From contig JBGAHS010000004.1 in assembly GCA_044226015.1 (NCBI GenBank), positions 192,001 through 256,000 of the forward strand: DNA of 64,000 bases, in the 5' to 3' direction. Made by a program: the position numbers and the translations under genes. The stretch comes from Candidatus Obscuribacteraceae bacterium (GTDB lineage Bacteria; Cyanobacteriota; Vampirovibrionia; Obscuribacterales; Obscuribacteraceae). Below are positions 38,205 to 43,324 of this stretch, in pieces (the first letter of the stretch is position 1; every line of letters starts with the position of its first letter). The notes under the pieces are model-generated. The model did no database searches, was not told the DNA's origin, and saw only the letters and a program-made list of their open reading frames with translations.

Positions 38205-40760
38205 TCATTCATTTTCGTTGTCGGCGGCTTCGGCTGATTCCGCTTCTTTTTCTAATTTCTGGTATTCAGGCTCGCGCTTGCTCAATTCGTGATGACTGTC
38301 CATTGCTATTCTTGCCACGCGTAAGTAGTCTCTGCTAAGAGCTTTATTCTTTGTTTTGAGTTTATGGCAAAGTTCAAAGACCTTATTCAAAAACTCATCT
38401 GCGCTCGTTTTCTTGCAAGCTTTGTCTATGTAGTTCTGCGCTCTATCTGGAAACTTAATTGCAAGGTATGTGTATACCTCACAAATATGAGCGTTTGAAA
38501 ATTTAGCTCGGTCAATGTTCTGGTCGAGTAATTCAAGAACCCTGGTCTGTTCCCTTTGTGCTTTAGAACCTGTGTTGTTTTGAAAATCTCTAACCAGTTG
38601 AAGAAGCAGAGCCGCTGATTCCTCGGGCTCTGAATTCAGATGATTTGACAGTAATGGACCTATTGTTGTCCACAGTCTTTGATGGCTATATTCCACCGGA
38701 TAAAGCACTGGAATCAGAGCTTTGCTTGATGGCAAAAAATATTTTGTGTCCTCCGCGTCGATTCTACTCAAATAAGTCAAACCTTCCTTCAGTACAGTTT
38801 CTTTTCTGTTTGCGGCGCCGGACTTCAGAGCGGTTAAGTAGATAATCTCCACCTGATCTCTCAGGTCTGGTTTTAATTCATTCAGTCGCACTGCACGAGT
38901 CAGTGCTGTTGCGTATTGCAGCGCCTTTTGCGGCTCATTATTTTCGATGAATGCGTTTACTCGGTAGCTCATCAAATTGACTGATTCATTACTGTAAAAA
39001 TCACTTTTTTCGGTAGGAAGATCTCCGTACATAAATCCTGTAATTTCAAGCATTTCATTTGCGGAGATATCCTGACGAATAAGCCTGCAGAATTCTGCGA
39101 GTCTGGACACATTGATGAACTCCTCTTTTTCAAATGCTCTTCGTAATGAGTTCGCAGCTTGCAAGGCTATTGCCTTTCTCTTCTCTGATGAATATTCCGT
39201 GTGAAAAAGCAGTTCCCGAGTTAACGCAAGAGCCCTACCCACATTATCGTTTTGCGTTATGCTGACTAGATACTCATTTAGTTTTCTTGCGTTGTCTGAG
39301 CGTTTTGTAAGTCCGAAAACGTCTTCGCAAGCAAGTATGTTGTCGCGCAACATTGGCATCAATTCTGGTTCTTTCTCGATTGTTTTTGAAATTAATCGCA
39401 GATATTTGATGGTGTCATCATAATTGCTAATCCACGAGCTTAATAATGCCAGGTATGAAAGCCTCTCTAATTCACTTTTGGGGTCTGCTAAATGGGTTTG
39501 GCTGAGCCTGTTCAAAATGTTCTGAAAGACAGCTCGTTTTGAATAACCAGCATCGTTTTGCTTTTTGACAGTGATATTGTATTGAAGGCATTTCTGGGCA
39601 ATTTTAGCCAACTTCAAAGGCGCTATCGTCTTATTTGATGCATTTGAGATCAGAAAGCTGTTTGCCTGCTCAAACAACTTGTCGTTGCTAATATCGCTAC
39701 TTTCGCTGAAGTATCGTGCCCGGTCCTTGAGTTCTACTTTCTCGGGGGCTTTGCCAAAATGAAGGGCGCTAAGAGTAATCAACCCCATGATTAATCCGAC
39801 GGCTACAATAGACCAGAACCACTTTTTTTCAAGGACTTTTCTTGAATCTGATTCGCCCGAGGAATTTGAGCATGCTTCTAATGCTATTAGCAATTCTGAT
39901 GCAGTCTGAAATCTCTTTGTCCTGTCCTTTTCGCAGCAACGCAAAATGCAGTCAGCAAATTTCTTGCTTATGCCATATTTAGCTGGCACAGAGAGTAATG
40001 GTTTGTTTACGTGGTTGTGCATCGTTGCTAGCTCGTTTGCATCTTCCATGGGCGGCGTGCCCACCATTGCCTCGTACATCACGCAAGCTAGCGAATAAAT
40101 GTCAGAGCGTTGATCGAGTTCCTTTTCACTACATTGCTCTGGGCTCATGTAGTTTACGGTTCCCAACATGACGCCTGTCTGAGTCAGGTTTTGATTGCTT
40201 GATTGAAGTGCTTTGAATATTCCAAAGTCGAGCAGTTTTGCAATTCGTTCGTCGGGTTCCTCTAAAAGCATTATGTTGGCTGGTTTGAGGTCACGGTGGA
40301 TAATATGCTTTTCGTGCGCATATTCTAGGGACTTGCAAATTTTGATGAAAATTGGAATGGCTTCTTCTTGTTTCAGAGGACCGTTTTTTTTCAATTTCTC
40401 AGCAAGAGTCTCACCTTTTAGGCGCTCTAAAACCATGTAGTTGCGACCATCTGGGAGACTCGAGAATGCAAGAAACTGTACGATGTTCTCATGATCAAAT
40501 GTACTTAAGACCTGAGCTTCATTCTTGAATCGCAATGATGAATCAGAACTTTGTTCTGGAACCTTATTCAGGATTTTAACTGCTACTGTTTTTTCAAGTA
40601 GCCTGTGGAATGCTTCGTAAACAACTCCATTGCCACCTTCGCCAATGATCTTCCGTACTTCCATCTTCTGGTCAATTAGTGTTCCAACCAGGTTTGAAGA
40701 CGAACTCGGGCTGTCTGGCCTTTGTTGTTCGTCTTCAGGTTCGTGTTCGCGATTCTTCAA
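38205..40760 (-). CDS. Hanks-type Ser/Thr protein kinase with TM and helical C-terminal domain
   Basis: IGEGGNGVVY, VAVK, HRDLKPANIM, DFG, YMSPEQ; TM WFWSIVAVGLIMGLITLSAL. Confidence 0.92.
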   Translation of the reverse strand: MKNREHEPEDEQQRPDSPSSSSNLVGTLIDQKMEVRKIIGEGGNGVVYEAFHRLLEKTVAVKILNKVPEQSSDSSLRFKNEAQVLSTFDHENIVQFLAFSSLPDGRNYMVLERLKGETLAEKLKKNGPLKQEEAIPIFIKICKSLEYAHEKHIIHRDLKPANIMLLEEPDERIAKLLDFGIFKALQSSNQNLTQTGVMLGTVNYMSPEQCSEKELDQRSDIYSLACVMYEAMVGTPPMEDANELATMHNHVNKPLLSVPAKYGISKKFADCILRCCEKDRTKRFQTASELLIALEACSNSSGESDSRKVLEKKWFWSIVAVGLIMGLITLSALHFGKAPEKVELKDRARYFSESSDISNDKLFEQANSFLISNASNKTIAPLKLAKIAQKCLQYNITVKKQNDAGYSKRAVFQNILNRLSQTHLADPKSELERLSYLALLSSWISNYDDTIKYLRLISKTIEKEPELMPMLRDNILACEDVFGLTKRSDNARKLNEYLVSITQNDNVGRALALTRELLFHTEYSSEKRKAIALQAANSLRRAFEKEEFINVSRLAEFCRLIRQDISANEMLEITGFMYGDLPTEKSDFYSNESVNLMSYRVNAFIENNEPQKALQYATALTRAVRLNELKPDLRDQVEIIYLTALKSGAANRKETVLKEGLTYLSRIDAEDTKYFLPSSKALIPVLYPVEYSHQRLWTTIGPLLSNHLNSEPEESAALLLQLVRDFQNNTGSKAQREQTRVLELLDQNIDRAKFSNAHICEVYTYLAIKFPDRAQNYIDKACKKTSADEFLNKVFELCHKLKTKNKALSRDYLRVARIAMDSHHELSKREPEYQKLEKEAESAEAADNENE

Positions 40761-40793: not shown

Positions 40794-42614
40794 TTATTCT
40801 TTCGGAGCTTTAATGACTGCTTGAACTGATTTCTGACCGTTTCGGAAAATCCATGGTGGAACTGGTTTAGCGCTGGTCCAGATACCAATCTTGGCTATCT
40901 TTGCAGTGTTCTGGAGCCGTTTCAGTTCTTCGTCTTTGGGGGCGTACTTGTCGCTCCACCAGGCCAGTCCCTTCTCAACCAGCTCTTGATTCAGATTGCA
41001 GCCGTCGTCGAGAATAACATCGGCAATGGTTCTGCCCATGCGATCCTTACCATGTAAGGTCAAAGTGACCATCTTATTCTTGCAAATTTGTTCTGTAAAA
41101 CTCTTCGCCTGGGGTCCATATTCCTGAGCCATCTCTGGGCAGTCTATTCCGTAGAGAATAACTTTCTCTTTTTTCTGATCACGCAGAATTGTAAGACTGT
41201 CTCCATCTTGCACCGATACAATTTTAGCCTTTATGTCTTCGGCGCTTGCCGGTAGGGCTGACAGTGCGATGAGCATCAATACGGCAAGAACTGACACGAG
41301 TTCCTTGCTTATTCTCTCGATTGTACTAAGCGCAATTTTTCTAACTTCTTCTCTTCTAGCCACTTTATCTCTTACTTTCATTAGTTCTTCCGGTGTATCA
41401 ATTATTCCCCAATTTGAATTTATTGGTTGGAAGTGCTTTGCGTCAGCACTAGTGATGTAGCGTATTAAAGCTCCGATCATGCAAGTACCCGGCAAAGTCA
41501 ATAATTCCTCGCCATTTAATCGTCTTGCTGCATTAATTGCAGCGATGATACCAGTGGCAGTGCTCTCCGAGTAGCCCTCTACGCCAGTCAACTGACCGGC
41601 AAAAAATACATCGGGACGTTTGCGCAGGTTCAAACTAGGCGACAAGACCACGGGGCTGTTCAAATAAGTGTTGCGATGCATGACGCCGAGTCTGACAAAT
41701 TCGGCAGATTCCAAACCTGGTATCAGTCCAAAGATTCGTTTCTGGTCAGGCCATTTCAAGTTCGTTTGAAAACCAACTATGTTGTAGAGCTTGGCGGCTG
41801 CATTGTCTTGTCTCAGTTGAACGACTGCGTAGGCTCGTTTTCCAGTCTTGGGGTCTTCCAATCCAACAGGTTTCATCGGACCAAATCGCAGTGTATCCAC
41901 ACCTCTTGAAGCGATGACTTCGACCGGTAAGCAAGATTCAAAATATGGTGTGTCTTTCTCGAAGTCCTTGAGCTCAACCCTTTCCCCTTCAGTTAAGGCT
42001 GTCCAAAACGCGAGGTACTGTTCTTTGTTCATTGGGCAATTAATGTAGACGCCTTCACCTTTGTCATAGCGACTTTTCTCATAGGCGATTTCCATGTTGA
42101 CAGATTCGCGCGTGAGAATTGGAGCTGCGGCATCGAAAAAATGTAATTGAGCTTCGCCCGTGGTGCTGCTTATTGACTCAGCTAGAGCTGCAGATGTTAG
42201 AGGTCCGGTCGCTACAACGCATACACCATCGGTTGGAATGCTCGTTATTTCTTCCCTGTGCAAGGTGATAAAAGAATTGCCGCTGATTGCTTCAGTAATT
42301 GTGTTTGCAAAAGCTTCTCTGTCGACTGCCAGCGCGCCACCAGCCGGAACTTTGCAGTTCCAGGCCGATTGCACAATCAGTGAATCGAGAATTCGCATCT
42401 CTTCTTTGAGAAGCGCCGAAGCATTCTTGCTATCATAAGAACCGAGGCTGTTCGAGCAAACCAGTTCGGAAAGATTATTTGTGTGATGCGCGCCGGTCAT
42501 CTTTACAGGTCGCATTTCATAAAGGTCGACGTGTATGCCTCGGCGCGCCAGTTGCCAGGCTGCTTCAGTTCCAGCCAGACCGCCACCGATAACCGTAACT
42601 CGCTTTTCGGACAT
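40794..42614 (-). CDS. trmFO: TrmFO (FAD/folate tRNA U54 methyltransferase) fused through a hydrophobic helix to a thermonuclease (SNase) domain
   Basis: VIGGGLAGTEAAW, ELVCSNS, FESCLP, HRNTY, GQLTGVEGY over about 438 aa; then LVSVLAVLMLIALSALPASA; then DGDS...GIDCPE...DRMGR...LVEKGLAW...AKIGIW; ATG 42614 follows GGAGG. Confidence 0.9.
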   Translation of the reverse strand: MSEKRVTVIGGGLAGTEAAWQLARRGIHVDLYEMRPVKMTGAHHTNNLSELVCSNSLGSYDSKNASALLKEEMRILDSLIVQSAWNCKVPAGGALAVDREAFANTITEAISGNSFITLHREEITSIPTDGVCVVATGPLTSAALAESISSTTGEAQLHFFDAAAPILTRESVNMEIAYEKSRYDKGEGVYINCPMNKEQYLAFWTALTEGERVELKDFEKDTPYFESCLPVEVIASRGVDTLRFGPMKPVGLEDPKTGKRAYAVVQLRQDNAAAKLYNIVGFQTNLKWPDQKRIFGLIPGLESAEFVRLGVMHRNTYLNSPVVLSPSLNLRKRPDVFFAGQLTGVEGYSESTATGIIAAINAARRLNGEELLTLPGTCMIGALIRYITSADAKHFQPINSNWGIIDTPEELMKVRDKVARREEVRKIALSTIERISKELVSVLAVLMLIALSALPASAEDIKAKIVSVQDGDSLTILRDQKKEKVILYGIDCPEMAQEYGPQAKSFTEQICKNKMVTLTLHGKDRMGRTIADVILDDGCNLNQELVEKGLAWWSDKYAPKDEELKRLQNTAKIAKIGIWTSAKPVPPWIFRNGQKSVQAVIKAPKE

Positions 42615-42667
42615 TTTTCTTCCTCCGATGACACCCGCCATCGCTTCGGGAAGTCATTATATCCCAG

Positions 42668-43039
42668 CTATTCGAGGACGACTTTGCTGCGTGAAAAGTC
42701 GAGTGTAAGTTTTCGTCCTGACAAAAACTTTTCGCCAATTATTGCCCGATTTTTAATTCCACCGAGCACGACTACCTGATGAGGCTCGCCGCCCAGTGCC
42801 ATCGTGCCGAGATAATGGTCCATCAGTACCGTCTGGAAACCCACAACAACTCTGCGTGAGCCAAGCCTTCTCCAGCCCAGGCGCACAGCCAGCTCTTCGT
42901 TAATTGCCATGGCTCCGCCATATTCCAGAGACACAGCAGCTTCCACTTCTACTTCTAAGCCGTCTGCTGCAATAACAATAACCGGCAGCAAAACTTTACC
43001 TGCCTCATCTATGCGACCCTGGATTACCGAATTTCTCAA
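42668..43039 (-). CDS. Clan AA retropepsin-like protein lacking the catalytic DTG
   Basis: IQGRID...IAADG...AINEELAVRLGW...IIGEKFL pattern of small aspartyl-protease-like proteins; VSLEY where LDTGF is expected. Confidence 0.6.
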   Translation of the reverse strand: MRNSVIQGRIDEAGKVLLPVIVIAADGLEVEVEAAVSLEYGGAMAINEELAVRLGWRRLGSRRVVVGFQTVLMDHYLGTMALGGEPHQVVVLGGIKNRAIIGEKFLSGRKLTLDFSRSKVVLE

Positions 43040-43060: not shown

Positions 43061-43324
43061 TTAACAAAGAGTGTCTACAGCCGGATTATCGCTCAGCCTG
43101 TATGCGAAGAACTGCGAGCGTGGATGTTTCTTTCTCGCTCTATTCAAAACCTCATAGTCGTCCAAACCAATGAAATAATCACCTGTCTCCGGCTCAATAG
43201 CCACGATCCAGTCCTTATAGCGCTCTCCCAGCTCGGTGTAGAGCCGTTCGAAGGTCGGAAAACAAAGGCGGTCCAATTCTTCCCTTGAATAAATCTTAGT
43301 TTCCCGTGATTCTGGTTGACCCAT
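43061..43324 (-). CDS. Small DUF5678-like protein
   Basis: YKDWIVAIEPETGDYFIG...ARKKHP; this type commonly precedes retropepsin-like genes. Confidence 0.6.
   Translation of the reverse strand: MGQPESRETKIYSREELDRLCFPTFERLYTELGERYKDWIVAIEPETGDYFIGLDDYEVLNRARKKHPRSQFFAYRLSDNPAVDTLC

Follow-up and report, generated by a model that had tools for sequence, protein, structure and literature searches.

A single gene on the minus strand of a Candidatus Obscuribacteraceae contig (JBGAHS010000004.1) joins a complete TrmFO to an SNase-like domain through a hydrophobic segment that has the features of an internal signal peptide. The gene lies in a stretch of 64,000 nucleotides, hereafter the window, and the TrmFO/SNase fusion is real. 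From the arrangement of its parts, we propose that the protein is made as a single precursor, oriented N-in at the inner membrane, which signal peptidase I would cut after A458 to give an SNase-like protein in the periplasm and a TrmFO in the cytoplasm. We lean toward this reading and, by analogy, we regard the fusion as a new example of an FbcH-like polyprotein architecture. The features on which the argument draws are as follows.

40794..42614, minus strand: whole fused open reading frame (ORF; protein P0001, 606 aa), consisting of TrmFO, a predicted internal signal peptide, and an SNase-like domain
42622..42626, minus strand: GGAGG Shine-Dalgarno site, 7 nt ahead of ATG 42614, scored by duplex energy
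41301..42614, minus strand: TrmFO domain, residues 1-438, from profile match and catalytic residues
41301..41375, minus strand: last helix of TrmFO, basic (8 K/R and 5 D/E per 25 residues), the predicted cytoplasmic n-region, from composition and model
41241..41300, minus strand: predicted internal signal peptide (h-region about L439-S452, c-region ALPASA, predicted cut after A458), from hydrophobicity, model, and homologs
41295..41306, minus strand: AAGGA and GTG 41297, a proposed internal start that homolog codon and duplex energy leave unsupported
40794..41240, minus strand: mature SNase-like domain, residues 459-606, plus stop codon, from profile, alignment, and structure
41157..41159, minus strand: I486 in place of the catalytic Arg35, from alignment to Protein Data Bank (PDB) nucleases

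The ORF runs from ATG 42614 to TAA 40794 in one frame without an internal stop, so that TrmFO passes directly into the helix and the SNase domain, as the preliminary description of this DNA had read it. The GGAGG at its start forms a duplex of -9.5 kcal/mol, equaled by 0.8% of internal ATG/GTG codons; a scan for promoters and terminators gave signals at chance level. The preliminary description had pointed to a stop codon or indel around 41300 as a possible flaw. Contigs of four public runs (X1-X4; assembled contigs rather than raw reads) cross the TrmFO/SNase junction with no stop and no indel there. The X1 contig covers the full 40794-42614 unbroken with 0 differences, and the X2 contig does the same with 12 substitutions and 0 gaps, these two runs being possible sources of the window DNA itself. 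X3, from the same sample as X1, covers 40975-42469 across the junction with 8 differences and 0 gaps (6/7 of its variants inside the fused ORF are synonymous), and X4, from a separate study, contributes a 189-nt piece across the junction at a depth of 2.6. The preliminary description had also looked to related genomes for the same fusion, and the same in-frame junction is found in three related proteins: P0002, 90% identical to the window protein; P0003, 69% identical; and P0054, a partial protein that includes the junction. An assembly or sequencing artifact is ruled out, as far as assembled contigs can show, by these proteins together with the intact contigs, and since the junction contains no stop, neither stop-codon read-through nor an alternative genetic code is necessary.

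The fusion is rare and comes from a few uncultured kin of the cyanobacteria that lack photosynthesis. TrmFO was found in 8/8 genomes of the genus and is fused in two, the genome of the window (G000) and G007, which encodes P0003. A separate SNase gene lies directly downstream of trmFO in G002 and G006 (gaps of 129 and 97 nt, respectively), the SNase ortholog is on a different contig from trmFO in G003 and G004, and no ortholog was found in G001 or G005 at E <= 1e-40. A 694-aa open frame in G002 was considered as a further fusion and ruled out, as 4 stops of three kinds separate the same-frame genes. Since separate and distant, adjacent but unfused, and fused states occur within one genus, the passage from an operon to one gene for two compartments can be read from sequence. 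Across the family, TrmFO is patchy, with a strong match to the window query in 18/104 genomes, and only the same two carry the fusion; many family genomes contain the SNase ortholog and no full TrmFO match. In the protein database, the 36 close TrmFO proteins comprise 3 full-length fusions (P0001, P0002, and P0003) and 33 unfused proteins. A homologue search of limited reach found both domains in 3/44 proteins, and the TrmFO motif was absent from 147 new 50%-cluster representatives for residues 331-606, taken from the best 150 of 22,613. No fusion outside this group appeared among the protein matches covered by these limited-reach searches, and most loci whose products are related to the junction-plus-SNase region are titled Obscuribacterales or Melainabacteria. 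A title-level search of the literature on TrmFO with fusion or nuclease, or on Obscuribacterales, which is thin on subscription journals and covers main articles rather than supplements, returned no TrmFO-SNase form.

The first 438 residues are a TrmFO by sequence. Residues 2-438 match full TrmFO models well above the curated cut-offs (NF003739, 662 bits versus 262; TIGR00137, 642 versus 429), which bears out the complete TrmFO of about 438 aa originally placed at 42614-41301. In an alignment to the Thermus thermophilus enzyme (PDB: 3G5Q), C53, C228, H313-R314-N315, and Y348 correspond to C51, C223, H308-R309-N310, and Y343, the catalytic cysteines, the folate H-R-N, and the FAD-stacking tyrosine of that enzyme (PMC7226160, in part). 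Both catalytic cysteines, the folate motif, and the FAD motif with its tyrosine are thus all present, and on this alignment the TrmFO part of the fused protein is a TrmFO with all catalytic residues. The gene is also the sole full-length TrmFO match in G000. The protein therefore shares its full-length match and its catalytic residues with the TrmFO family of folate/FAD-dependent tRNA m5U54 methyltransferases (T. thermophilus, PDB: 3G5Q/R/S), and differs from that family in its 168 extra residues, the predicted signal peptide and the SNase-like domain. A full-length structure model was poor in the TrmFO part (mean pLDDT of 67, 13 rows) and was set aside.

Residues 439-458 (41300-41241) read LVSVLAVLMLIALSALPASA, and no other part of the protein has a 19-mer of comparably strong hydrophobicity (mean Kyte-Doolittle value of 2.37; runner-up 1.34). 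The segment ends in ASA, in line with the signal-like stretch with an A-x-A end proposed previously. Using simple scales of our own rather than a trained predictor, we compared it with the features of Sec signals, among which high hydrophobicity favors SRP (PMC5875014, in part). A basic n-region (supplied by the TrmFO helix), an h-region, and small residues at -3 and -1 are present, whereas the segment begins at residue 439 instead of at the N terminus. The final TrmFO helix of the fused proteins contains 8-10 K/R versus 5 D/E, with a net charge of 0 over the last 12 residues in P0001. The cut sites of the four fused sequences are LPASA/E, LQASA/E, LPASA/E, and TPALC/E (the slash marks the predicted cut); the small -3 and -1 residues and the acidic +1 residue are kept in 4/4 while adjoining residues vary, and P0001 and P0002 differ at 7/20 segment residues with the cut site retained. 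A small-x-small site occurs at the same place in 81/81 parsed standalone SNase orthologs (A-x-A in 69%). Few of these orthologs match the h-region hydrophobicity of P0001 (4/81), P0002 (1/81), or P0054 (2/81), which counts once because the three are close kin; the h-region of G007 is average, being matched by 37/81. A model of residues 399-606 (pLDDT of 92.9), which contains no membrane and is silent on topology, shows a single helix over 408-452, followed by extended chain at 453-459 and by the SNase fold. G000 has two signal peptidase I genes. Judged by its sequence features, the middle segment is the signal peptide that belongs to the SNase, and the basic last helix of TrmFO serves as its predicted n-region.

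Residues 484-580 match SNase PF00565 (80 bits versus a cut-off of 21), and the modeled fold returns Foldseek matches to PDB nucleases (E 4e-12, rmsd of about 2.2 Å). D470, D472, D491, E494, and R528 correspond to Staphylococcus aureus D19, D21, D40, E43, and R87; D19, D40, and E43 are kept in 55/55 sequences and D21 in 54/55. In staphylococcal nuclease, Arg35 and Arg87 polarize the scissile phosphate (PMC8436206, in part). The Arg35 position is Ile in 87/98 parsed homologs, fused and unfused alike, and Arg in 6; among 147 more distant representatives from the best 150 of 22,613 it is Arg in 113 (26 unparsed), and an SNase paralog elsewhere in G000 (C3:32660-33127) retains it as well. The Ca2+ ligands and the general base of an active thermonuclease are thus in place, and one of its two arginines is replaced (R35 = I486). 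The domain is likely no ordinary thermonuclease, since Arg35 is replaced throughout the subfamily, so that the thermonuclease domain originally assigned to 41240-40794 stands as an SNase match and falls short as a statement of function, the Arg35 to Ile change having been overlooked. Since five active-site residues remain and only Arg35 is lost, the exported half, whether fused or not, is expected to act as a weak or altered nuclease or to bind nucleic acid or Ca2+. It has the fold of S. aureus Nuc and Nuc2 (PF00565), shares D19/D21/D40/E43/R87 with them, and likewise has a signal preceding the domain; in contrast to them, it has Ile for Arg35 subfamily-wide, scores far under the NucI and EcnA cut-offs, and is placed behind an entire cytoplasmic enzyme.

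As a separate observation, the 40794-41240 domain and P0055-P0153 belong to a secreted SNase subfamily that is widespread in the family and apparently unstudied; about 90 sequences keep five active-site residues and have lost Arg35 to Ile. Fusion has left the rate of change of the SNase half unaltered. Identity between P0001 and P0002 is 91.6% for TrmFO and 88.5% for the mature SNase, as against 92.2% and 88.5% in the unfused pair G002/c5237. On these identities, the SNase half is not decaying in the fusion and is as conserved fused as unfused. The analysis behind these identities, which also gave the AU p of 0.179 quoted below, treated six further unfused TrmFO/SNase pairs as neighbors, which they probably are, only because the longest contigs of each pair have the same length.

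Under the precursor reading that we favor, TrmFO would be translated first and would fold in the cytoplasm. The hydrophobic segment would be recognized late, probably cotranslationally, by SRP/Sec, and signal peptidase I is predicted to cleave at ASA/E. The SNase-like domain would then be released to the periplasm and TrmFO would work in the cytoplasm on a short membrane stub, which may stay as a tail anchor or be trimmed by a protease within the membrane. Each half probably retains the role that it has in unfused relatives, which would make the fusion a tolerated and maintained economy; with SNase orthologs in many family genomes that have no full TrmFO match, nothing indicates that the halves cooperate. 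The bitopic protein with a nuclease-like domain outside, possibly cleaved off, that had been suggested earlier is therefore the best-supported branch, its topology and cleavage being predictions. Several points count against the precursor reading. The conserved cut site could equally serve a separately started signal peptide; the G007 h-region is only average and begins with an in-frame Met; the fused form is confined to 2/8 genus genomes, 2/18 TrmFO-bearing family genomes, and 3/36 close TrmFO proteins; and the 438-residue folded domain before the signal is longer than in the precedents compared.

A comparable case is FbcH of Bradyrhizobium japonicum, a cytochrome b/c1 precursor that Thony-Meyer et al. 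are said to have described in 1991, in which one gene reportedly gives two proteins by way of an internal signal peptide. Like FbcH, the gene reported here encodes an internal signal peptide within one frame, an arrangement shared by relatives (P0002, P0003, and P0054), and two products are predicted. FbcH, however, joins two subunits of one membrane complex, whereas here a soluble housekeeping enzyme is joined to an unrelated exported protein, and cleavage is only predicted. The gene would be a bacterial polyprotein caught near birth, and it allows a natural test, in compact form, of whether a signal peptide that follows a 438-residue flavoenzyme can be handled by Sec/SRP and signal peptidase I. 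Its reach is limited by the rarity of the fusion and by the uncultured state of the organisms, and a new joint function is not indicated.

The alternative that fares best is an uncut type II membrane protein, in which TrmFO is tethered inside and the SNase-like domain anchored outside, a Nuc2-like arrangement with a cytoplasmic enzyme added. The 20-residue uncharged run and the very hydrophobic core in the G000 lineage would suit it, and signal-anchored SNases exist, Nuc2 being an uncut type II example (PMC3994088, in part). Internal sites can also be shielded from signal peptidase until triggered, as in Bacillus subtilis RsiV, which signal peptidase cuts at a non-N-terminal site in a ligand-gated manner (PMC4183432, in part). 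The fused protein resembles RsiV in having a signal peptidase site, here predicted, away from the N terminus in a protein with a cytoplasmic function; it differs in that RsiV cleavage is ligand-gated and regulatory and RsiV has a small cytoplasmic anti-sigma domain, whereas no gating is indicated here. Against an uncut protein, the modeled helix has just 14 or so hydrophobic residues and then gives way to an extended c-region with a Pro, and the cut-site residues at -3, -1, and +1 have stayed constant in all four fused sequences amid changing neighbors. We consider an uncut protein unlikely, if still a serious candidate.

A nested gene is the next candidate: translation of the SNase-like protein would begin at a start inside the long frame (GTG 41297 or ATG 41276, or the junction Met in G007), with the long product a by-product whose tail TrmFO tolerates. 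The AAGGA noted previously just before the in-frame GTG 41297 is present, 4 nt ahead, and its duplex with the genome's own anti-Shine-Dalgarno sequence is -4.3 kcal/mol. This value lies close to the median for 2,554 putative real starts, approximately half of which are no stronger, and 21% of the 7,612 internal ATG/GTG codons sampled equal it, so that it neither identifies a start nor speaks against one. The codon at this position is Ile in P0002, 3/4 standalone SNase genes tested have Shine-Dalgarno sites of -6.6 to -10.5, and a signal begun there would have no basic n-region, which lowers export (PMC5875014, in part). ATG 41276, which no site precedes (-1.7), leaves only 12 residues. Sequence comparison thus gives little support to the internal start at GTG 41297 raised in the preliminary description. 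Internal initiation is a more open question in G007, where an in-frame Met sits exactly at the junction, at the start of the h-region, in an A-rich context without a Shine-Dalgarno site, because the trmFO start of that genome likewise has no such site. Overall, we judge the nested gene improbable.

As for the history of the precursor gene, QPINSNWG in TrmFO and DGDS in the SNase lie 222 nt apart in G000 and 234 nt apart in G007, compared with 387 nt in the unfused G002 and 361 nt in G006. The adjacent unfused genes are thus 127-165 nt longer between the same landmarks, which rules out point loss of a stop codon and makes an in-frame deletion in a two-gene unit the likely origin. In the ancestor, a secreted SNase-like gene would have come immediately after trmFO. 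Loss of approximately 130-165 nt in frame would have removed the short tail of TrmFO, its stop codon, the spacer, and the start and n-region of the signal, and the n-region role would have passed to the basic last helix of TrmFO. The junction DNA alignment is too diverged for placing breakpoints. The fused state persists between proteins that are 10% apart (P0001 and P0002). The lost stop codon suggested earlier is accordingly correct as history and wrong as an artifact or point mutation.

A further proposal is that the fusion arose twice in one genus because it is useful, linking tRNA methylation with the membrane or with a nucleic-acid sensor in the periplasm, with cleavage as an RsiV-like switch. 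If so, the outer domain would gate cleavage or hold TrmFO at the membrane, and m5U54 methylation would be coupled to periplasmic contents. The TrmFO tree, built without P0020 (motif mismatch), places P0001 and P0002 beside the unfused P0009 and P0010 (97/94) with G007 apart and needs 2 changes, and the G000 and G007 junctions differ by 4 residues. On the other side, two tests do not reject a single fused clade (AU p of 0.062 and 0.179), and the RpoB+SecA tree joins G000 and G007, weakly (72/85). Across three trees, either one or two origins would fit, the TrmFO tree suggesting two and the RpoB+SecA tree weakly suggesting one. Moreover, same-strand adjacent genes fuse by deletion without any benefit, and both the unfused state of most close TrmFO proteins and the family genomes with an SNase ortholog and no full TrmFO match argue against a coupling. 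We regard selection for such a coupling as quite improbable. Least probable of all is a cytoplasmic two-domain enzyme whose segment does not serve export and whose nuclease-impaired OB-fold is an RNA-binding accessory of TrmFO, for although Tudor-SN SN domains with mutated active sites bind RNA (PMC2441809, in part) and the fused domain does lack Arg35, that arginine is equally absent in the secreted standalone orthologs, the linker keeps and even raises its hydrophobicity and retains the cut site, and the SNase half has undergone no rate change after fusion.

Upstream of trmFO in most genus relatives lies a 123-aa gene (42668-43039, minus strand) with no Pfam/NCBIfam match, whose product has language-model features like those of clan AA aspartic proteases (0.96); no DTG-type motif was seen in it, so it may be inactive. 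The product was ruled out as a processing enzyme for the fusion, since the gene adjoins unfused trmFO too and the motif was not seen. An 87-aa ORF without a Pfam/NCBIfam match (43061-43324, minus strand) has conserved counterparts next to the protease-like gene in G003 and G005. On the other side, a Ser/Thr kinase gene with a predicted membrane segment (38205-40760, minus strand) begins 33 nt past the stop of the fusion; a kinase gene likewise comes after the SNase gene in G002, G004, and G007, and does not in G006. Outside the window, 8/8 genomes of the genus have two RpoB-like genes whose products are only 44% identical (in G000, C11:704340-708179 and C11:1301474-1304422), and the product of C11:704340-708179 exceeds the NCBIfam rpoB cut-offs.
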